Shown: piece by piece, positions 30,847-59,400 of the stretch | Position numbering within the stretch: the first letter of the stretch is position 1 | Layout: every line of letters starts with the position of its first letter | Sequence record: PP400777 | Source: Escherichia phage JM10 | Strand: one strand, 5' to 3' | DNA: 64,000 nt | The notes under the pieces: generated by a model | The model's input: the letters and a program-made list of their open reading frames with translations, nothing else | The model's database searches: none | What the model was told of the DNA's origin: nothing | Program-made: the position numbers and the translations under genes

Positions 30847-31947
30847 TTACGCTGTGAAGATTTTATCCCACATCGCAACAACTGCATCTCGGTTATACTT
30901 CTTCCATACTGCTTCAGCACGTTTAACTCGAGCTTCGTATGTGTCAGTGAATTCTAATACAGCTTTTGTGTAAAGCGCAACTACTTCTTTCTTAGGAGTA
31001 GAGGAATCAATTTCTACACGCACAGTATCTGGGTCGTATTCGAATGTCGCATGAGGATAATCCTTAAAAACTAACTGGATTACAGGGACACCTTTAGAGA
31101 TGGCTTCAATAGAACTATTCTCTACCGTACCTGTGTCAGGACACGTATTAATAAGTGCTTTAGCTGTTTTAAGACGTTCCATGATTTCACTGTGTGGAGC
31201 ATCAATAATAACAGGATATTTAGCTGGTGGGGCCCATTTGCTTGGACAATAACCAATACCATTTTCGCCTAGTGCTTTAATTGCTTCGAGAGCAACATCA
31301 GTACGACGCATTTTAGTGTCATAACGTTGTGCACTAATAATCAGATCAGTCGCCGGAAGAACTTCAGGTTTCTCATTCAAACAAATAACCGGATAATCTT
31401 CGGCTTCAAACAACGGATTTGCTCGCCAATAATCATAATCAATTTTGTCAGTCAGACCTGAAGTCATATAACAATATTTGCGTTCAAATTCACGGAAGGC
31501 TTTAGTAGGAGCATAACTCTTACCACCGTTCTTATGAATTTGAATAGTCTGGTCCCAAATTTGAACAATGCCACGAGATACCGGTTCAAATGGTGTTGCC
31601 ATAAAATTCTTATGAACTTTAGAGAGACCTGCGTCTTTAATTGCCTGAACGGTTAGTTTAGTCGGTTCCATAGTAACAACAAAATCGTATTCATGGATGC
31701 CGGCTAGTTCAACAATCTTACGAGCCATAGTATAACTCATACCTAGACTGAATTTTGTCAGATGACCAACAGGATGATGATTAACCTTCCAATCACCAAA
31801 TGTGTCATTATCAAAACCGATATAATCAATATCAGCACCGATGGACACAAGATATTTCAACACATTTAAATGTACTGCTTCAAGACCACCTTGTACACGG
31901 TCAGGATTAAATGGGACTGCGCGAGATGGGATAAACATAACTTTCAT
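30847..31947 (-). CDS. GT-B fold (GT4-like) glycosyltransferase; candidate DNA hmC sugar transferase
   Basis: 366-aa ORF; C-terminal motif TGTVENSSIEAISKGVPVIQ resembles the E-x-F-G...EA-M/I-A/S-x-G-x-PVI nucleotide-sugar binding motif of retaining GT-B enzymes; sits where T4 has gene 60/mobA. Confidence 0.65.
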   Translation of the reverse strand: MKVMFIPSRAVPFNPDRVQGGLEAVHLNVLKYLVSIGADIDYIGFDNDTFGDWKVNHHPVGHLTKFSLGMSYTMARKIVELAGIHEYDFVVTMEPTKLTVQAIKDAGLSKVHKNFMATPFEPVSRGIVQIWDQTIQIHKNGGKSYAPTKAFREFERKYCYMTSGLTDKIDYDYWRANPLFEAEDYPVICLNEKPEVLPATDLIISAQRYDTKMRRTDVALEAIKALGENGIGYCPSKWAPPAKYPVIIDAPHSEIMERLKTAKALINTCPDTGTVENSSIEAISKGVPVIQLVFKDYPHATFEYDPDTVRVEIDSSTPKKEVVALYTKAVLEFTDTYEARVKRAEAVWKKYNRDAVVAMWDKIFTA

Positions 31948-51244: not shown

Positions 51245-51607
51245 TTAAAAGAATTTAAATTTTTTCTTGGTTCGTTCATTAAAAGCTTGTTGTACTTGCA
51301 TTGTAACACATTTTTCAACATGTGGTGCAAGTTCTGCTTTTCTGTCCTGGTCAAGAACTGCAAAGTCCATTACGATTTTACCATCAACCCAGTCTAGTTT
51401 TGTAATATAGACTATATGATGAGAACCGTCTTCAAGTGTAATCAGAATCTCTTGAATGACATTTTCCATTGCTGAACGGATAATTTTAAGAGATTCATTA
51501 AACACTCGTTCTTTGCGAATGTCTTCCCCTTCCGAAGAAGGGGATTCATCAACGATTTCTAGATTTAAATCATCGAGATTATTCATCGAAATCTTCCATT
51601 TCGTCAA
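51245..51607 (-). CDS. 40: Head vertex assembly protein gp40 (positional)
   Basis: 120-aa ORF between uvsX and 41; start may be the ATG at 51586 because the listed start overlaps the uvsX end by 29 nt. Confidence 0.55.
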   Translation of the reverse strand: MTKWKISMNNLDDLNLEIVDESPSSEGEDIRKERVFNESLKIIRSAMENVIQEILITLEDGSHHIVYITKLDWVDGKIVMDFAVLDQDRKAELAPHVEKCVTMQVQQAFNERTKKKFKFF

Positions 51608-52751
51608 GGTCGTTTTCTATATCTGCTGCAGACGGAGCATCAGAAGTTTTAACCGGAACTTTAGTTGTTGCTTTGCAATTAATAAGGTCGTTAACAGCGT
51701 CATCAACTTCTTTAATAGAAGAGATAGCACCTAGTTTATATTTAGTTTCAATTGCATCTCGGAAAGGCTTATGTTTAAACAACGGCCCCCAGAATTCTAC
51801 ACAATCAGTAGCTTTAGCACGCCATGATTTTTCTTCACGAATCATTTCACCTGTTTCTTCGTCAAGGAATTCACGAGCATACCACCCGGCTTTAGGCTTA
51901 ACTACAAAACCAATTTCAGTTGCCATTTCTAACAAGCCACTGAATGGGTCAATACCGCCATCAAAATTAACCGTGATCGGGAAAGTAGATTTTTCTTTAA
52001 CAGTACGAGATTTTTCAGCTTTCAACGTGAAGTCATAACCGGTCAATTCTGTACCTTCTTTAACCTGACGTTTAGAGATAAAAAATACCGTGTTGGCAGA
52101 ATAAAGAATACCTGTACCACCGCCCATAATCTCTTTAGGATACAATCCGCCGATTTCCATTGCGGTATGGTTAATTGCAACACACGGAATATCTTTAATA
52201 GTCAGATACGGGGTCACAATACGGAAAAGAGATTTAAGTGCCTTAGCACGAGACATATCACCTACAACTTTCTCGTTCAACGCATCTTCGGTTTCTTTCT
52301 TAGATGCAGTATTACCGATTGAATCGATAAAGATAATAACTTTATCACCACGTTCAATCGCGTCAAGCTGATTAGTCATATCGACTTTAAGTTGTTCGAC
52401 AGATTGAATCGGAGTATGAACTACACGGTCTAAATCAACACCCATTGAACGAAAATAAGATTCTGAAGCACCGAATTCTGAGTCATAAAACAAACAGATT
52501 GCATCTTTATATTTCTTCATATACGCTGCAACCATAGTTAGTCCAAACAATGTTTTAAAATGTTTAGAAGGTGCAGCAAAAATAGTCAAGCCTGATTGCA
52601 ATCCTGCATTCAGAGCACCGCCTAGTGCAATATTCAACATCGGAATACGAGTAGGGACTTCATCACGATTATTAAACAGCTTAGACTTAGTCAAGTCTGC
52701 AGTCATTTTAGAAGTAGAAGCTTTAATCAGACGAGATTTTAAATCAGACAT
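51579..52751 (-). CDS. uvsX: Recombinase UvsX (RecA homolog)
   Basis: 390-aa ORF; RecA-like ATPase core; acidic C-terminus. Confidence 0.92.
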   Translation of the reverse strand: MSDLKSRLIKASTSKMTADLTKSKLFNNRDEVPTRIPMLNIALGGALNAGLQSGLTIFAAPSKHFKTLFGLTMVAAYMKKYKDAICLFYDSEFGASESYFRSMGVDLDRVVHTPIQSVEQLKVDMTNQLDAIERGDKVIIFIDSIGNTASKKETEDALNEKVVGDMSRAKALKSLFRIVTPYLTIKDIPCVAINHTAMEIGGLYPKEIMGGGTGILYSANTVFFISKRQVKEGTELTGYDFTLKAEKSRTVKEKSTFPITVNFDGGIDPFSGLLEMATEIGFVVKPKAGWYAREFLDEETGEMIREEKSWRAKATDCVEFWGPLFKHKPFRDAIETKYKLGAISSIKEVDDAVNDLINCKATTKVPVKTSDAPSAADIENDLDEMEDFDE

Positions 52752-52850
52752 TGTATTTTTTCCATAGGCATCATTATATTTTACTCATGTTTAAAAGATA
52801 AGACGATTATATACTAAGGGTTATACAGCATTTAAAACTTTAAATGGCTC

Positions 52851-53399
52851 TTAACGAGCCCATTTGATGATTTCTGTAATCAAATCATTACGTTCGCTTG
52901 CATTAAATCCTATAACTTTGTTAGCACCATCATGATTAAGTAATTGATACGTTTGGATTTTGTTATGAATTGCAAACTCTTCAAAATGTGAAATGACTGT
53001 ATTAAAACCGAATGAAGACAAAGTAATAAGATCGTCTTCAAAACTTTCAGTCATTTCGTTACGTGTTAAAATAATTGTGAACACATCATGGTTTTGGCAA
53101 AGACGAACATAATCCTGTTCATAAACGTCAAGAACCGAGTCCGCATCTTGTCGAATACGTCCATAAACCCAGTTACTAATATATCCACGGTCTAATAGAT
53201 AAATCTTAGTAGGGTCTAAATAATTCAACATCGTTTCGAAACAGCCAACTTCATTTCGAGACTTAACATCGAAACGTCCATCAACTGTTCGTTTAGGGAA
53301 ATCAATCTTTACATATCTTTCACTAATTTCCATTATGTCATTAATGAAAGTTGTTTTACCAGCATTATCCGGGCCATCTACTAAAATAATTTTAGCCAT
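52851..53399 (-). CDS. P-loop nucleotide kinase (thymidylate-kinase-like)
   Basis: Walker A VDGPDNAGKTT near the N-terminus and a DRGYISNWVYG segment resembling the DRY..S..AYQ motif of dTMP kinases; 182 aa; occupies the T4 beta-glucosyltransferase locus. Confidence 0.55.
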   Translation of the reverse strand: MAKIILVDGPDNAGKTTFINDIMEISERYVKIDFPKRTVDGRFDVKSRNEVGCFETMLNYLDPTKIYLLDRGYISNWVYGRIRQDADSVLDVYEQDYVRLCQNHDVFTIILTRNEMTESFEDDLITLSSFGFNTVISHFEEFAIHNKIQTYQLLNHDGANKVIGFNASERNDLITEIIKWAR

Positions 53400-53400
53400 T

Positions 53401-54300
53401 TTATTCCTCGATTACGACATCTTCGTATTTAGGTATATTATACGGTGAAGAAATTAAAGCGTTAAAGTAGATGAACTCACCAAGACCTGGATGGAATACT
53501 TCTTCAGGATTTTCGAAATATTGAATCTTCGGACGTCCTTTAAGAATTTGATAGTACTCAGTTTTAGTTGGTTTAAAAATTCGAATCAACGCTTCTTCAG
53601 GATACTTATTTCTGTCGAAGCTATTATTTGGATCGGTTATATAAAGCGGTTGGCCTAATTGAATTGCACATTCAACCACTTGTTCAAAACGATAGCACGG
53701 GTCACTAATTCGAAATGGATGAAAAATACCATCTAGATGAATAGGAGCCAAATCACCTACAAGACGCTGCATGATGGAAGGACGTATAACTTTCTGCGTT
53801 ACGATAATCTTATTACCATCTGCACCTGCGTTAACCAGCACTTCTTTTTGACGTTCATTCAACACAGTAGTTTGAAGTGAACGATTAACCGACAACATAT
53901 CAGTTTTTAAGAATTCGTCAATATAAAAACGTGGTTTATTAGGGTCTGCAGTGATATTGAAATTGAATTCCACATCAAAAGCGCCGTCATATCCGGTGAT
54001 ATCTGTGATTAGAAAATCACAATCATAATAAGCAATTAATGAATCAACCACAAATTCATTTTCAGACCAGAAATATTTACGAGTGTTATACGCGTTATCT
54101 TTATACCATAATGGAACAAACTTAAATTCTGGGAAAAGACGTTCGCATTCTTTAATATCGGATGCATTACGTGGATATGTAATCACATCGCCTGGATTAG
54201 CACGGTGCAAATGAAGTTGGAAGTTGCCATCCTTAAGGATAGCATACTGTCCAGTTTCATAAGACCGCATACTCAAAATAGGTACGCGGAAAATAGCCAT
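53401..54300 (-). CDS. Hypothetical protein (299 aa) at the beta-glucosyltransferase locus; possible DNA-modification enzyme
   Basis: No recognisable catalytic motif by eye; ATGA-overlapped with gene 42; not similar to what I recall of T4 Bgt. Confidence 0.45.
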   Translation of the reverse strand: MAIFRVPILSMRSYETGQYAILKDGNFQLHLHRANPGDVITYPRNASDIKECERLFPEFKFVPLWYKDNAYNTRKYFWSENEFVVDSLIAYYDCDFLITDITGYDGAFDVEFNFNITADPNKPRFYIDEFLKTDMLSVNRSLQTTVLNERQKEVLVNAGADGNKIIVTQKVIRPSIMQRLVGDLAPIHLDGIFHPFRISDPCYRFEQVVECAIQLGQPLYITDPNNSFDRNKYPEEALIRIFKPTKTEYYQILKGRPKIQYFENPEEVFHPGLGEFIYFNALISSPYNIPKYEDVVIEE

Positions 54301-55016
54301 TAGTCAAGGAATCCTTTAACATAATCAAAATCACGTTCAAACACATGGGCACTTACCATGGTATGAGTATAATCACCAACTTCTACACCACATTCGTTAG
54401 CGATATAATGAAGTAATTTTCCTTGGAGATAAAAATCCAACTGCATAACAACAGCACAGTTCTGAGAACGCATATGACAGTGGGTATAAAGCTTACCATC
54501 ACGAATATAATAAGTCACTGAGTCAGTACATGGATATTCAAGCGTTTCGTCTGAATCAAGCAAAGCCTGATCAGAACTTTCTAGAATTTGGAACACAACT
54601 CTTCGAGAGTTAGGCTTCTCTTTAAGTTCTTTTAGAAGAGTTGGTAATTGGGCCGCAATGCGAGGACCATAGAAAGTGTTGAAGTTCGCCGGCAAAACAT
54701 CTGATTTTGGTTTAGAAATAAATTTAGCGACATTAGGATATGCCTTAAACGCTTCTTCTGCGTTGGTACCACCAGAAATCATAAACTTCCAGAAGTCTTC
54801 GGCATATTCATAAGAGATGCGGTTAATACGTGGGTCGGTCATTTTGAATGATGATGGAGTGTCAACAACTACTGTCATAGACCCAATTTCATTACAACGT
54901 CCAATACGAGAATCAGTTACGAATTCCGGGTTTTCTAAAATTTCACGATTGACTGCTTTAAATGCGGTTTGAAAATCTGCGGCTTTGATATATTTCATTG
55001 TGTTATGTTTTCCCAT
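54300..55016 (-). CDS. 42: dCMP hydroxymethylase gp42 (thymidylate-synthase fold)
   Basis: TS-family active-site pattern ...YPCTDSVTYYIRDGKLYTHCHMRSQNCAVVMQLDF (Cys nucleophile and RS.N segment); position between uvsX and 43 as in T4. Confidence 0.7.
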   Translation of the reverse strand: MGKHNTMKYIKAADFQTAFKAVNREILENPEFVTDSRIGRCNEIGSMTVVVDTPSSFKMTDPRINRISYEYAEDFWKFMISGGTNAEEAFKAYPNVAKFISKPKSDVLPANFNTFYGPRIAAQLPTLLKELKEKPNSRRVVFQILESSDQALLDSDETLEYPCTDSVTYYIRDGKLYTHCHMRSQNCAVVMQLDFYLQGKLLHYIANECGVEVGDYTHTMVSAHVFERDFDYVKGFLD

Positions 55017-55058
55017 GTTTACCTCAATACAATTTATTATATACTCAATTCGTAAAGC

Positions 55059-55298
55059 TTATTTGAATTTCTTGACAATGTTGATATAACGTAAAGCTTC
55101 AGCATCGATACTTCCAAGAACACTATGAAGAAATGCATCAGCGTAGTATTCCAATTGAACAGGTTCTTTAATCACTTTAGCCGCTTTAGTTTCAAACAGG
55201 CCCATCAGGGCCTGTTTAAGAATTTGTTCATTAGTGTTCAGTTTCATAGTCAAAATCTCTTCATTAAGTTGGTGGTTAAAAGTTTTTCTAGAAATCAT
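55059..55298 (-). CDS. Hypothetical small protein (79 aa)
   Basis: ORF with ATGA overlap to the Cys-rich gene upstream. Confidence 0.45.
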   Translation of the reverse strand: MISRKTFNHQLNEEILTMKLNTNEQILKQALMGLFETKAAKVIKEPVQLEYYADAFLHSVLGSIDAEALRYINIVKKFK

Positions 55299-56455
55299 TC
55301 CGGGTACCTCAAAGCGTCATCAGAGTTAGTTATATCAATAATAGATATAGAGTTTTCTGCTAACCCGTTTTTAGATAATTGACGTTTATAATATCTTTCA
55401 CAATATGTACACGTCGTCCCGCAGATTTCATTAGCACAATCGAAATCTGGATGTCTGAACCACCTTTTTTCTAAAAAGCCATCTAACAAAGAGGTTTCAA
55501 TATTTACTGTATGTGAAAACTCAGTTTCGTTTTCAAGAGTGAAAATAGTCTCTAAAGGCTTCCACAGTTCTAACAAATTACCTTCAAACTTTTCAGAAGC
55601 GTATGCTTCAAGAACTTTCAAAATGTAGTCTGTACTACCTGTACGTCCTGAAACTTTGAATTGAGTGATACCAATATCATTATAAAGTTTCAAATCTTGA
55701 GGACGAACAAAACGAGTTCTCAACCAGTTAAATGGGTCTGTATCACGAGCTTTAATACAGTGCTGCATAGGATATCCGTTTAAGGATTTAGCATCATCAG
55801 CTGTAACATCAGTACTATGGAAAATATAGCAAGAGTCACGATAGCTACAATGTGTTGTATACCCTTTACCAGCATTAGAACAGAACTCATTTACAAGAAC
55901 TTCAAATATTATATTGTTCTTATTGCAAAACTCTGCTGCACGCTTCAGGAAAGAAACTGAACGGTTCTTATGAATTCCACAGCAGACCTTTTTGATATTA
56001 TATTGGTCATGCAAGTATTTGATTTGAGTTACAGCATCGACATGTAGAATTGTTGAAACTTCAATCTCAATGTCTTTATTGACTTCACGAACAATTTCCA
56101 TAACAACAGGGTTAGCGATAGTAATACGCCATACGCCTATTGACCAAAGATACTGAACATAATCCTGAATAGCTTTCTTCTTCCACTCAACTAGTTCTCT
56201 TTTTGAACCAGGATTTATCGTGTTGAGTGTATAGTTAAAGCAAATACCTAATTCGTTACAACGTTTAACGTAATCTTCTAACATCTTTTTGTCAACGTCA
56301 GGAAGCCTAAAATCAGGTCTGGCTGCTACAAAAGCCATTTCTCTTGTAGAGCCGTATACTTCGTTTATCAAGCTATTAGGATAAGTTTTATTGAGCTCTA
56401 CGATTTTATCAAGAAGAGCTAAATCAAAATTCGTTCCGATTTTAAAAGTATTCAT
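55295..56455 (-). CDS. Cys-rich protein of unknown function (386 aa), part of the sugar-nucleotide module
   Basis: 13 Cys including clusters VCCGIH, EFCSNAGKGYTTHCSYRDSC and a C-terminal CANEICGTTCTYC (C-x4-C-x3-C-x2-C); a metal or Fe-S site is possible. Confidence 0.5.
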   Translation of the reverse strand: MNTFKIGTNFDLALLDKIVELNKTYPNSLINEVYGSTREMAFVAARPDFRLPDVDKKMLEDYVKRCNELGICFNYTLNTINPGSKRELVEWKKKAIQDYVQYLWSIGVWRITIANPVVMEIVREVNKDIEIEVSTILHVDAVTQIKYLHDQYNIKKVCCGIHKNRSVSFLKRAAEFCNKNNIIFEVLVNEFCSNAGKGYTTHCSYRDSCYIFHSTDVTADDAKSLNGYPMQHCIKARDTDPFNWLRTRFVRPQDLKLYNDIGITQFKVSGRTGSTDYILKVLEAYASEKFEGNLLELWKPLETIFTLENETEFSHTVNIETSLLDGFLEKRWFRHPDFDCANEICGTTCTYCERYYKRQLSKNGLAENSISIIDITNSDDALRYPE

Positions 56456-56511: not shown

Positions 56512-56898
56512 TTATAGATTAGGTTTATATGATTTAAATGTTTCGAATTCGCCTTTATTCATAAGAGCTTTGAATTCGTCAGGACGCATAGCTTTGTCGT
56601 CGATAATCCAATCATATACTGGTTTATGTGTTAGCAAATTATGGTACTTCAAGCCAATGTTTGCCAAGTTCTGAATCAGACTTGGGAGAATGTCAATTGC
56701 TATACGTCCAGGACCTACTGACTTCATACCGCGAGCAGTGTAAAGCGTTATTGTATGCCCTGCATCATACAGAGCATTAATGGCAGACACCATTTCGACG
56801 TCTGGTTTGAAGTTCACGTAATCACGATTGTTATTCCACTCTGTTATACAATCATCGACATCAAAACAAAGATTAAGCATGTTTTCTACACGGTGCAT
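56512..56898 (-). CDS. HAD-superfamily phosphatase (small, about 128 aa)
   Basis: Motif I-like FDVDDCIT near the N-terminus, motif II TLYTARG, motif IV-like IIDDKAMRPDE; start taken at the ATG overlapping the upstream stop (TAATG) with GGGAA SD. Confidence 0.6.
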   Translation of the reverse strand: MHRVENMLNLCFDVDDCITEWNNNRDYVNFKPDVEMVSAINALYDAGHTITLYTARGMKSVGPGRIAIDILPSLIQNLANIGLKYHNLLTHKPVYDWIIDDKAMRPDEFKALMNKGEFETFKSYKPNL

Positions 56899-58583
56899 TA
56901 GATTCGTTCCCATTGATGAGTGATATCGCCACCGATTGGACGATAGGAAACACCAGTTTCTTTATCAGTTAGTACCCATTTACCAGGATTTTTTGTAATC
57001 AGAGTAGCCGTTACAGGTTCTGCTACGTCATAACTAATAGAGCCGTCCTGAAGTACACGGCCCATGTTACGTAATTGCTTAGTCAGAAGTTCCATACCTT
57101 TATAATATGCGGCTACCGCTTTAAGTGGATTATTCTTGAAATAACCACCTAATGCAATCCAGATAATTGCCACTGCCAAATGATGATACTCGTTAAACGA
57201 ACTCATCTTTCCATATTTGTAAACTAATGGATTGATGTTAATAGTCACATTACAAGTTGTTTCATCAATAGTAAACTGTCCCCAGGTCGGATTAGCATTG
57301 AATTCATCATAACCTGAAACAGCATAAAGCACTTTAGCTTCATCATACAATTTTGGCCCGTAAATCTTGGTTTCGCCAAAATATCCACGAGGGTCGATAA
57401 ACTTGACTTCGCCGTTATCAGTAATCATAGTATTACTGAAGTTCGGGTCACCGTGAATAACAGAGTACTGCCCCTGAGAACGGTTATGATAACGAATAAG
57501 GTGTTCTAAAGCTTGTTTCAGCATTGGCTTCAGACGTCCAATCTTAGTGTAGTTCACATGTGTGATTTTACCAAATGAATCAATCAATGGTTGAATGCTT
57601 TCACAACGATCAATAACTTTCGTATAGAATTCTTTAGTGAAATCACGACGAACAGTTTCAGGACTTACAAAATAAGTGTCTGTGCTGAATTTCAGTGCAT
57701 CTAAAATTGCATCAACAATTTGTGGACGAGCAAGACTTGATTTGGATTTAATATATTCAAATGCCGGCTTACCTTTAATGCGTTCCATTTCAAAGTTATT
57801 TTCATTAACAGAAACTAACTGAGGAACTGAATCTGATTTCACTTTAAGATACCATGAAATCTCATCTTTCTGAAGAGCTCGACCTTGTTCAGTTAATGCG
57901 AATTTAGTTACAGTTTCTTCACCAATTTCAACTGCATTAAAACTACGATTAAGTTCACGAACTTCATGAGCTTTTTCAAGTTTAGGCATATCACCTAAAT
58001 CAATTATATTCATAAGCTCTGATTTATTGAATGCGCCGCTGTAAAGGAATTCTACAAAATCACGTCCTTTGCAGTATTCATGAATTTCCTCATCGGTAGA
58101 ACCCATATAGAATTCCCAGTCTTTGAACTGATAAATTCCTACAACATTACCACCTGTTGAACCTACGTTAGTGATATTTTCACCGTCGAAATTATAGCGA
58201 CATTCGTCACCCTTAACATAGATTGCGTTGACATTCCAAGACCATGAACCAAAATCAGGAATAATATCGCACCAGTTAACAATTACGTTATGGCCATCTA
58301 AATCTTTGTGTAATTTAGCAAGAGCATAAGCAGATCCGTATGCTTCATCAACTGTACGAATAGTCACATTGAACCCTTCTTGCTCACAATAAGCTCGAAC
58401 AGTTTCAGCAAATTTTGAATGAACTACTACAATAATTTCATCTGCGCCAAGGTCAGAATAAATTGTATACAAATTGCTCAGAATAGTGTCTTGTTTATAG
58501 TTAACAAGCACCTTAGGAATATGATGCGTTATTGGATACAAACGAGTTGCCAGTCCAGCACCAAGAATAACAGCTTTTTTCAT
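56898..58583 (-). CDS. Bifunctional sugar-1-phosphate nucleotidyltransferase (RmlA/GalU-like) / APH-fold sugar 1-kinase
   Basis: N-terminus MKKAVILGAGLATRLYPITHHIPKVLV matches the G-x-G-T-R-L signature of sugar-1-P nucleotidyltransferases; C-terminal VIHGDPNFSNTMITDNGEVKFIDPRGYFGE matches the HGD...N / D-x-E motifs of aminoglycoside/choline/anomeric-sugar kinases; 561 aa. Confidence 0.7.
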   Translation of the reverse strand: MKKAVILGAGLATRLYPITHHIPKVLVNYKQDTILSNLYTIYSDLGADEIIVVVHSKFAETVRAYCEQEGFNVTIRTVDEAYGSAYALAKLHKDLDGHNVIVNWCDIIPDFGSWSWNVNAIYVKGDECRYNFDGENITNVGSTGGNVVGIYQFKDWEFYMGSTDEEIHEYCKGRDFVEFLYSGAFNKSELMNIIDLGDMPKLEKAHEVRELNRSFNAVEIGEETVTKFALTEQGRALQKDEISWYLKVKSDSVPQLVSVNENNFEMERIKGKPAFEYIKSKSSLARPQIVDAILDALKFSTDTYFVSPETVRRDFTKEFYTKVIDRCESIQPLIDSFGKITHVNYTKIGRLKPMLKQALEHLIRYHNRSQGQYSVIHGDPNFSNTMITDNGEVKFIDPRGYFGETKIYGPKLYDEAKVLYAVSGYDEFNANPTWGQFTIDETTCNVTININPLVYKYGKMSSFNEYHHLAVAIIWIALGGYFKNNPLKAVAAYYKGMELLTKQLRNMGRVLQDGSISYDVAEPVTATLITKNPGKWVLTDKETGVSYRPIGGDITHQWERI

Positions 58584-58624: not shown

Positions 58625-58768
58625 CTAGTTAAAGCATTCATACTTCGCTTGTAGTCCAATCATAATCCATCCGATTATAAGAGTCGGAACCATTACTGGA
58701 GCCGTTAAGCTCCAGTAGATAGTCATGACAAGCATCAATAGTAAAAGTCCTATTGTTATTGCTTTCAT
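58625..58768 (-). CDS. Small membrane protein (47 aa), not in ORF track
   Basis: MKAITIGLLLLMLVMTIYWSLTAPVMVPTLIIGWIMIGLQAKYECFN; start overlaps the SIS gene stop (ATGA). Confidence 0.45.
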   Translation of the reverse strand: MKAITIGLLLLMLVMTIYWSLTAPVMVPTLIIGWIMIGLQAKYECFN

Positions 58769-59400
58769 TGCTCGCCTCGTAACATGGCACCTAGTGCACC
58801 GCCTGGATGGAACTTAAGGAAGTCATTAGAGGTAAATCCACGTTCAGACGAAAGGTTGATAGCAAACGTATCGATAAGCGCTAACAACAATGTAGTGGAC
58901 ATAGTCGGAGCCAGAGAATTCTCATCAACCTCTACTGCGATGCCTGTACAGAACGTATAATCAAAAAGAGCTTCGTATTCTTGTGGAATGTCAGGGTTAC
59001 AATGTAACAGAATCTGTTTAACCTGAGGACGAATCATACGAAGATGTTTAGCAACACCTATCATTTCTTCAGTCTTACCAGAACGACTGATGTGAACTAA
59101 TACATCATTAGGTGCAATAAATCCTGCGTCACCATGAGAATAATGCCCGGTGTTCAAATACATGCTAGGAATACCGAGTGAAGCAAAAGTCTCGGAAGCT
59201 TTAGTTGCGATATTAGCATTCTTACCAACACCTGTAATAATTACTCGGCTTTCATAATTACTAAGTCCCGGGCGTCGAAGAGTTTCTAGAATAGCATTAT
59301 AACGAGCAGGGTTTTGACTAATTACTTTGGCCATAGCGGCCAAAGAAGAAGCTTGTTTTATGATTGCGTCAATAGCGATAGTAATAGGAGTAGTTTTCAT
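58765..59400 (-). CDS. Arabinose-5-phosphate isomerase-like SIS-domain protein (KdsD/KpsF N-terminal domain, no CBS pair)
   Basis: SRVIITGVGKNANIATKASETFASLGIPSMYLNTGHYSHGDAGFIAPNDVLVHISRSGKTEEM and ...LAPTMSTT...FHPGGALG align motif-by-motif with the KdsD SIS domain as I recall it (GKVVVMGMGKSGHIG..ATFASTGTPSFF..HGDLGM..DVVIAISNSGESSE ... APTSSTT ... SHPGGALG); 211 aa. Confidence 0.75.
   Translation of the reverse strand: MKTTPITIAIDAIIKQASSLAAMAKVISQNPARYNAILETLRRPGLSNYESRVIITGVGKNANIATKASETFASLGIPSMYLNTGHYSHGDAGFIAPNDVLVHISRSGKTEEMIGVAKHLRMIRPQVKQILLHCNPDIPQEYEALFDYTFCTGIAVEVDENSLAPTMSTTLLLALIDTFAINLSSERGFTSNDFLKFHPGGALGAMLRGEQ

Follow-up and report, generated by a model that had tools for sequence, protein, structure and literature searches.

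Two genes between uvsX and a thymidylate synthase homolog in Escherichia phage JM10 as probable members of the arabinosyl-5-hydroxycytosine pathway

Gene content of the locus

In the analysed window, which is the whole 64,000-nucleotide (nt) stretch from Escherichia phage JM10 (sequence record PP400777), two minus-strand open reading frames (ORFs) encoding proteins of 182 and 299 amino acids (aa) lie between the recombinase gene uvsX and the gene for a thymidylate synthase (ThyA) homolog (Table 1). Taken together, they are probably two members of the arabinosyl-5-hydroxycytosine (ara-5hoC) hypermodification pathway, a GT-B-fold glycosyltransferase (GT) for the first arabinose and a kinase for modified deoxycytidine monophosphate (dCMP). 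An initial annotation, made from the sequence alone, had placed two ORFs in the slot that the beta-glucosyltransferase (Bgt) gene b-gt occupies in T4, which agrees both with the ORF list of the window and with the T4 order uvsX-segA-b-gt-42-imm-imm.1-43 in the corresponding region. The kinase motifs that it quoted are present as well, VDGPDNAGKTT at residues 7-17 and DRGYISNWVYG at residues 70-80 of the 182-aa protein. The ATGA coupling proposed for the 299-aa ORF and "gene 42" is, however, incorrect: the junction reads ...GAC TAATGG..., i.e., TAATG with a 1-nt overlap. The stop codon of the 299-aa gene and the ATG of the kinase gene are 1 nt apart (TAA A ATG), and 99 nt separate the kinase gene from uvsX. 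Thus, the ThyA homolog, 299-aa, and kinase genes form a tightly coupled head-to-tail minus-strand set.

The window is that of an RB69-like Mosigvirus with approximately 99% nucleotide identity; over the locus, identity to RB69 and about 150 other Mosigvirus genomes is 98.9-99.1%, and the gene order matches RB69 ORF045c-055c. The 182-aa gene corresponds to RB69 ORF045c, and the 299-aa gene to ORF046c plus ORF047c. In the RB69 record AY303349 (L001:6701-7601) the latter two are split by one extra T at codon 182, which is absent from the intact gene of the window and from all other Mosigvirus genomes; Lee et al. also treat the split as a sequencing error (PMC13326640). Both slot ORFs are conserved in approximately 345 phage genomes with ratios of nonsynonymous to synonymous substitution rates (dN/dS) of 0.00-0.19, and are therefore real genes. 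A scan of positions 52600-55400 for promoters and terminators returned 12 promoter-like sites versus 11.2 expected, and 0 terminators. As for the role of the locus, the initial annotation had proposed a modification other than glucose, and this is borne out, since identity of the locus to RB69 assigns its genes to the ara-5hoC pathway (PMC13326640).

The slot genes are a rediscovery of a known system; its structure, its hydroxylase, and the synthesis of UDP-arabinose were described in papers of 2025-2026. The same ara-5hoC pathway is reportedly treated by He et al. 2026 and Mahler et al. 2025. RB69 gp45, gp46:47, and gp48 are already covered by Lee et al. (NAR 2026; PMC13326640). New in the present analysis are the co-occurrence of the kinase with hydroxylase-type ThyA loci and the purifying selection acting on the kinase.

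The ThyA homolog had been taken for gene 42, a dCMP hydroxymethylase, but this label is wrong, because the protein is only 25% identical to T4 gp42, is essentially identical to a phage HY126 protein (full-length match to PDB 9iqc/9ir2/9iqu, E 2.9e-160), and carries a different active-site signature. Its sequence runs from the catalytic cysteine C163 through MRSQN186 to D194, with Asn at the position of E. coli ThyA D169 and Asp at the position of N177, and it is by this Asn-169/Asp-177 signature that Lee et al. recognise 5-hydroxy-dCMP (5hodCMP) synthases (PMC13326640). RB69 gp48 itself is a flavin-associated 5hodCMP synthase that uses O2 (PMC13326640). The DNA of RB69-type phages contains mono- and di-arabinofuranosyl-5-hydroxycytosine, in which the sugar is ether-linked to C5 (PMC13326640; PMC13390438); arabosyl-hydroxymethylcytosine, as first believed (PMC6024577), is superseded. 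Below, ThyA homologs are classed by residue 169, N169 being hydroxylase-type and D169 hydroxymethylase-type. Two distant metagenomic contigs of 355 and 122 kb (L004:1-523 and L005:6739-7293) also have a Flavodoxin_2 gene, for a flavin mononucleotide-dependent NAD(P)H oxidoreductase, within an N169-type ThyA cluster, in L005 directly upstream of the ThyA homolog. Its product may serve the flavin-dependent hydroxylase as a flavin reductase.

Table 1. Genes of the slot, its surroundings, and the second arabinosyltransferase in the window
Feature	Positions	Strand	Supporting match or remark
366-aa gp3-type GT-B glycosyltransferase, second (beta) arabinosyltransferase	30847-31947	-	PDB 9iqz/9ir0 full-length, E 3e-250
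uvsX recombinase; downstream boundary of slot	51579-52751	-	Pfam T4_UVSX_C 1.1e-38, RecA 2.1e-11
182-aa P-loop protein with thymidylate-kinase fold (RB69 gp45); probable (modified) dCMP kinase, predicted	52851-53399	-	
299-aa compact GT-B glycosyltransferase (RB69 gp46:47); predicted base-proximal arabinofuranosyltransferase on the 5-OH of 5-hydroxycytosine	53401-54300	-	
238-aa thymidylate-synthase homolog, flavin-dependent 5-hydroxy-dCMP synthase (RB69 gp48)	54300-55016	-	PF00303 1.9e-15
79-aa ORF (RB69 ORF049c)	55059-55298	-	no Pfam match; phrog_8601 "unknown function"; overlaps U32 gene end by 4 nt
386-aa Peptidase_U32-family protein (RB69 gp50)	55295-56455	-	PF01136 7.3e-11
133-aa HAD-like phosphatase (RB69 gp51; AfhF homolog)	56512-56913	-	phrog_1238 5.3e-43
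561-aa bifunctional arabinose-5-P kinase/UDP-arabinose pyrophosphorylase (RB69 gp52:53; AfhE homolog)	56898-58583	-	NTP_transferase 8.4e-10, N-terminal
211-aa SIS-domain arabinose-5-phosphate isomerase (RB69 gp55)	58765-59400	-	PF01380 9.6e-10

The 299-aa protein as probable first arabinosyltransferase

The AlphaFold2 model of the 299-aa protein (pLDDT 95.1) consists of two Rossmann-like domains with a cleft between them, as in GT4-like GT-B enzymes. Its structural matches include sucrose-phosphate synthase 6kih (score 17.7), BshA (17.0), PimA (15.7), the phage HY126 glycosyltransferase 9iqz (14.5), and T4 alpha-glucosyltransferase (13.2). A search of 5.8 billion proteins yielded 138 relatives, and the family (GT1) occurs in 348 phage records, always adjoining a ThyA homolog, which is of the N169 type in the window and in all 26 T4-like viral loci L011-L036. 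Identity reaches 99.3% to RB69 gp46:47, 45.9% to DLP3 gp79, and 47.5% to Thanatos TH1_063 (over at least 98% of the length); nothing substantive distinguishes these proteins from the 299-aa protein, and the activity is predicted on both sides. Across 53 sequences with identities as low as 36%, no change occurs at F193, P195, F196, R197, D200, T222, P224, N225, H270, P271, or G272, and an acidic residue always stands at position 275. These residues make up the C-terminal-domain motifs FxPFRxSD, TDPN, and HPG plus the acidic residue, while an N-terminal SMRS/KDGN loop is also invariant. Such motifs fit a nucleotide-sugar site, with individual residues mapped tentatively to donor contacts.

Regarding the order of the two sugars, the main argument comes from mono-arabinosylated phages. 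Both Thanatos and LC53 carry a GT of the 299-aa family, which in Thanatos is reported to be the single arabinosyltransferase and to be syntenic with RB69 gp46:47 (PMC13326640), and for this reason the 299-aa enzyme would be the one that adds the first sugar. Lee et al. call gp46:47 "arabinosyltransferase 1", as predicted from an AlphaFold model, and gp3 the second transferase (PMC13326640). The gp3-type gene lies 21 kb from the slot, next to rIIA and a topoisomerase gene, and the role of its product as second arabinosyltransferase is described in PMC13326640 and PMC13390438. In comparison with the 299-aa protein, this enzyme (HY126/RB69 gp3-type, "Aat") has 366 aa, shares 12% identity, and represents a separate family that handles the second arabinose; its structure is solved (9iqz, from HY126), whereas the PDB search found none for the 299-aa family. 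Most likely, then, the 299-aa protein is the first, base-proximal arabinosyltransferase and the gp3-type enzyme the second. Of the initial proposal that the 299-aa protein is a second sugar transferase, the transferase part is upheld by the GT-B fold; "second" is not, the protein being most likely the first (PMC13326640).

The same annotation had named a divergent Bgt as the finding that would overturn it, i.e., that the 299-aa protein is a very distant T4 beta-glucosyltransferase and the DNA carries glucose. The genes do share a genomic slot, both products are GT-B proteins, and both are sugar transferases of a cytosine hypermodification pathway between uvsX and the ThyA homolog. However, no sequence relationship is found between T4 Bgt and the 299-aa protein (BLASTP E 3.7; hhalign profile-sequence probability 0.3%), and T4 beta-GT is not among the 60 best structural matches, so that the chance of this alternative is negligible. 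The T4 enzyme is also 52 residues longer, has an isoelectric point (pI) of 9.05 versus 5.13, and transfers glucose to hydroxymethylcytosine in DNA, whereas the 299-aa protein is predicted to transfer arabinose to 5-hydroxycytosine.

Several results weigh against assigning the 299-aa protein as the first arabinosyltransferase. It matches no Pfam family at E<=0.1 and no NCBIfam family, and a PDB sequence search with the 53-sequence profile of its family gave no match. Individual DLP3 GTs, including the gp79 homolog, did not arabinosylate 5hoC-DNA (PMC13326640, data not shown there). In the one assay found for a family member, by Brandt et al., purified TH1_063 formed UDP-xylose from UTP and xylose-1-phosphate and gave no transfer to unmodified DNA, dCMP, dCTP, or cytosine. 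Taken at face value, the UDP-xylose product would make the 299-aa protein, 47.5% identical to TH1_063, a UDP-pentose pyrophosphorylase (UTP plus pentose-1-phosphate to UDP-pentose) and not a transferase. This alternative is highly improbable. The fold is GT-B and not that of a nucleotidyltransferase, the 561-aa enzyme of the cluster has an NTP_transferase domain and AfhE, the counterpart of this enzyme in HY126, reportedly produces UDP-arabinose (PMC13326640), and mono-arabinosylated phages would have no transferase if the 299-aa family were not one. As for the null transfer, it is uninformative because the acceptors used by Brandt et al. had no 5-hydroxyl.

The names given to the 299-aa protein differ among databases: most records have "hypothetical protein", UniRef and a few phage entries use "RNA polymerase binding protein", phage NRG-P0074 has "glycosyltransferase", and PHROGs lists it as unknown. 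Nothing in this analysis supports RNA polymerase binding. Curated cluster names across the slot proteins comprise only "hypothetical protein", "thymidylate kinase", and the unsupported "RNA polymerase binding protein".

In Serratia phage PS2, gene 42 is followed directly by the gene for gp042 (L008:4001-4927), which is distantly homologous to the 299-aa family (hhalign 99.1%, 19% identity). With its D169 ThyA, b-gt, and ba-gt, PS2 belongs to the glucosyl-hydroxymethylcytosine type; its gp042 does not have the invariant SMRS, PFRISD, TDPN, and HPG of the family, and no kinase is found at the PS2 locus. To judge from its sequence, gp042 may be a relic or a repurposed protein.

The 182-aa kinase and its substrate

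The 182-aa protein had been described as thymidylate-kinase-like, and this description is confirmed: it has the thymidylate kinase (TMK) fold, a P-loop, and a DR(Y/H) motif, and its best structural matches are thymidine monophosphate (dTMP) kinases. PHROGs assigns it to thymidylate kinase (1.6e-45), and the profile of its family matches TMK sequences of the PDB at E 0.005-0.07. Alignment with E. coli Tmk and distant relatives shows the Lys/Thr of the P-loop and the DR motif; both motifs are invariant, and so is R113, where the LID begins. Lee et al. list RB69 gp45 only as "nucleotide kinase" (PMC13326640). One functional parallel would be T4 gp1 (RB69 gp159), also a phage P-loop kinase of deoxynucleoside monophosphates that serves modified dCMP, a role that for the 182-aa protein is predicted. 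The initial suggestion of a modified-nucleotide kinase is plausible.

For a comparison across genomes, 57 viral contigs were fetched via the ThyA homolog, and all their ORFs were scanned with hidden Markov models of the three proteins. A TMK-like kinase lies within 3 kb of 41 of the 44 assessable N169-type ThyA loci, versus 1 of 10 loci of the D169 type (T4 and PS2 included), although the loci counted are not phylogenetically independent. In total, the kinase is present in 343 phage records, compared with 348 for the 299-aa transferase, and its dN/dS of 0.06-0.19 is similar to that of ThyA and GT1, indicating purifying selection. The association with the hydroxylase spans T4-like phages of many genera and Rhizobium Pootjesviridae, in which the base-proximal sugar is galactose (PMC13326640). 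Two metagenomic contigs (122 and 355 kb) from very distant phages still have the ThyA/GT/kinase trio (GT identity 38%; kinase hhalign 99.0-99.5%). L046, L051, and L056 keep the TMK-like kinase but have an unrelated 434-446-aa protein in place of GT1. Gene order is mostly ThyA-GT-kinase, with kinase-ThyA-GT in Dhakavirus and the kinase 2 kb upstream in Marfa-type phages. Based on these genomic patterns, selection maintains the kinase as a core component of the 5-hydroxycytosine module whatever the sugar, and this speaks for a kinase of modified dCMP rather than an ordinary dTMP kinase.

At the loci with the substituted transferase (L046:6171-8123, L051:6682-9425, and L056:6723-8551), the 434-446-aa protein (no Pfam match) is followed by a divergent kinase with a P-loop Arg (GLSRTGKS). 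These loci may place a different sugar or substituent on 5-hydroxycytosine.

An ordinary kinase of dTMP or another canonical nucleotide, boosting dTTP supply apart from the modification, is improbable. It would account for the dTMP kinases among the best structural matches, for the many genome annotations that name the protein thymidylate kinase, and for the retained P-loop Asp (D11), which in type-I TMKs contacts the 3'-OH of the deoxyribose. However, the protein fails TMK family models, with no PF02223 match at E<=0.1 and a TIGR00041 score of 16.6 bits versus a cut-off of 83.25, and it is only approximately 15% identical to vaccinia A48R (2v54) and E. coli Tmk. The helix with the base-contacting residues of TMKs is invariant within the 182-aa family and differs from that of E. 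coli Tmk. Besides the 41/44 versus 1/10 distribution, T4 and PS2 have no such kinase at the locus, and the genetic linkage is to 5-hydroxy-dCMP synthases, not to dTMP synthesis, and points to a modified dCMP as the substrate.

Assignment as a modified-dCMP kinase meets objections of its own, among which the failed family models count again. In the P-loop, N12 occupies the place of the Arg that marks type-I TMKs; distant relatives do have Arg there (GLSRTGKS). The shortened, acidic LID lacks the Arg cluster of E. coli-type (type-II) enzymes and contains a single invariant Arg, R113, a candidate substitute for the catalytic residue. Neither of the two usual catalytic Arg residues is present, so that catalytic competence, though likely, is predicted. 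A further objection is that RB69 gp159, the T4 gp1 homolog, phosphorylates 5hodCMP to 5hodCDP in vitro, and that gp159 and gp48 suffice for 5hodC in E. coli DNA (PMC13326640), so that a second 5hodCMP kinase looks redundant. Most likely, the TMK-like kinase is the 5hodCMP kinase that belongs to the module, with a redundant role in T4-like phages.

Two other ideas about the kinase were rejected. Co-divergence of kinase and GT would have implied that the substrate is glycosylated, but it does not hold: in Dhaka- and Marfa-type phages a half-diverged kinase contrasts with near-identical GT and ThyA scores, and kinase alleles recombine independently. In the otherwise close phages L012 and L013 the synonymous divergence (dS) of the kinase (L012:7619-8161) is 0.81, versus 0.17-0.19 for ThyA and GT1; here recombination has replaced the kinase allele without the adjoining genes. 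The second idea, that gp044 of the hydroxymethylcytosine phage PS2 is a concealed kinase, was discarded at an hhalign probability of 0.1%.

The arabinose pathway, the acceptor of the first sugar, and neighbouring genes

The donor sugar is accounted for by genes beyond the ThyA homolog. RB69 gp55, gp52:53, and gp51 make UDP-arabinofuranose (UDP-Araf), gp52:53 acting as the bifunctional kinase/pyrophosphorylase and gp51 converting Araf-1,5-P2 to Araf-1-P (PMC13326640). In the window, the 561-aa counterpart of gp52:53 has weak kinase-family matches at residues 308-409. In phage NRG-P0074 (L002:10153-10914) a homing-endonuclease gene lies between the HAD phosphatase gene and the bifunctional kinase/pyrophosphorylase gene, an insertion that is absent from the window and RB69.

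In the proposed pathway, the ThyA homolog converts dCMP to 5hodCMP with flavin and O2, as shown by others, and the 182-aa kinase would phosphorylate 5hodCMP, or its glycosylated form, to the diphosphate, en route to the triphosphate for the phage polymerase. The arabinose-5-phosphate isomerase, the bifunctional kinase/pyrophosphorylase, and the HAD phosphatase supply UDP-Araf, as also shown by others. From this donor the 299-aa GT-B enzyme would place the first, alpha-linked arabinose on the 5-hydroxyl of 5-hydroxycytosine, as both we and Lee et al. infer, and the gp3-type enzyme would then add the second.

The data of Lee et al. do not distinguish a mononucleotide from DNA as acceptor of the first arabinose (PMC13326640). 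Conceivably, glycosylation precedes replication: the 299-aa GT would arabinosylate 5hodCMP, the TMK-like kinase would be an ara-5hodCMP kinase, the gp1-type kinase would handle only unglycosylated 5hodCMP, and the polymerase would incorporate ara-5hodCTP, so that phage DNA would at no time contain exposed bare 5-hydroxycytosine, which is an oxidative lesion. Such a scheme would explain why purifying selection retains the kinase even though 5hodCMP is already phosphorylated by gp159, and why the kinase tracks the hydroxylase and the first GT across phage families and different sugars. The gene order ThyA, GT, kinase with 1-nt junctions is that of the proposed reactions, the inactivity of DLP3 GTs on 5hoC-DNA points the same way, and the best structural matches of the 299-aa protein act on small-molecule acceptors. 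Weaker support comes from the uniform acidity of the GT1 family (median pI 5.1, net charge -9 to -18), set against the basic T4 beta-GT. To our knowledge, however, glycosylation at the nucleotide level has no precedent in phage DNA hypermodification. The charge argument is weakened by DLP3 gp77, which acts on DNA and is also acidic (-7.7). The gene order varies in Dhakavirus and Marfa-type phages, and kinase alleles recombine apart from the GT (dS 0.81 versus 0.19, in one genome pair). Moreover, later arabinoses go on at the DNA level, and 5hodC is tolerated in E. coli plasmid DNA (PMC13326640). Glycosylation before replication is thus rather unlikely.

Among the products of neighbouring genes, the U32-family protein stands out by its conservation, which exceeds that of hydroxylase, transferase, and kinase: in 221 records of phages with enteric or Shewanella hosts, identity is at least 82%. 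The organism names listed for these records include no phage of Acinetobacter, although both transferase and kinase occur in 57 records from such phages. The U32 gene of Karam-, Kanagawa-, Thanatos-type, and other phages (e.g., L069:3483-4894, L006:6462-7852, and L012:4587-6022) is 4-nt-coupled to a gene for a 79-114-aa protein that passes the Pfam CM_2 (chorismate mutase) cut-off (34.7-44.6 bits versus 27). In the window, this place is taken by a different ORF, that of the 79-aa protein in Table 1. U32 enzymes include prephenate-dependent, O2-independent hydroxylases (RlhA, TrhP, and UbiU/V). Since the family has such members while the known 5hodCMP synthase needs O2, the U32 and chorismate mutase pair may, by analogy, be a candidate anaerobic route to 5-hydroxycytosine. 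Within the literature collection searched, no paper joined U32, prephenate, and phage; Lee et al. label RB69 gp50 a "sugar or heterocycle reductase" (PMC13326640).

Arabinosylated 5-hydroxycytosine gives these phages protection against restriction enzymes, against the Brig1 glycosylase, and against CRISPR systems that target DNA, and it affects phage engineering and sequencing. The questions of interest at this locus are which enzyme adds the first sugar, on which acceptor, and why a TMK-like kinase is so faithfully retained beside the hydroxylase. If glycosylation did precede replication, it would be the first phage DNA hypermodification in which the sugar is attached before replication, overturning the accepted rule that phage DNA sugars are added afterwards. 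The pairing of a TMK-like kinase with a 5-hydroxy-dCMP synthase would then be a genomic signature of nucleotide-level glycosylation, and such phages would be a source of enzymes for glycosylated deoxynucleoside triphosphates.

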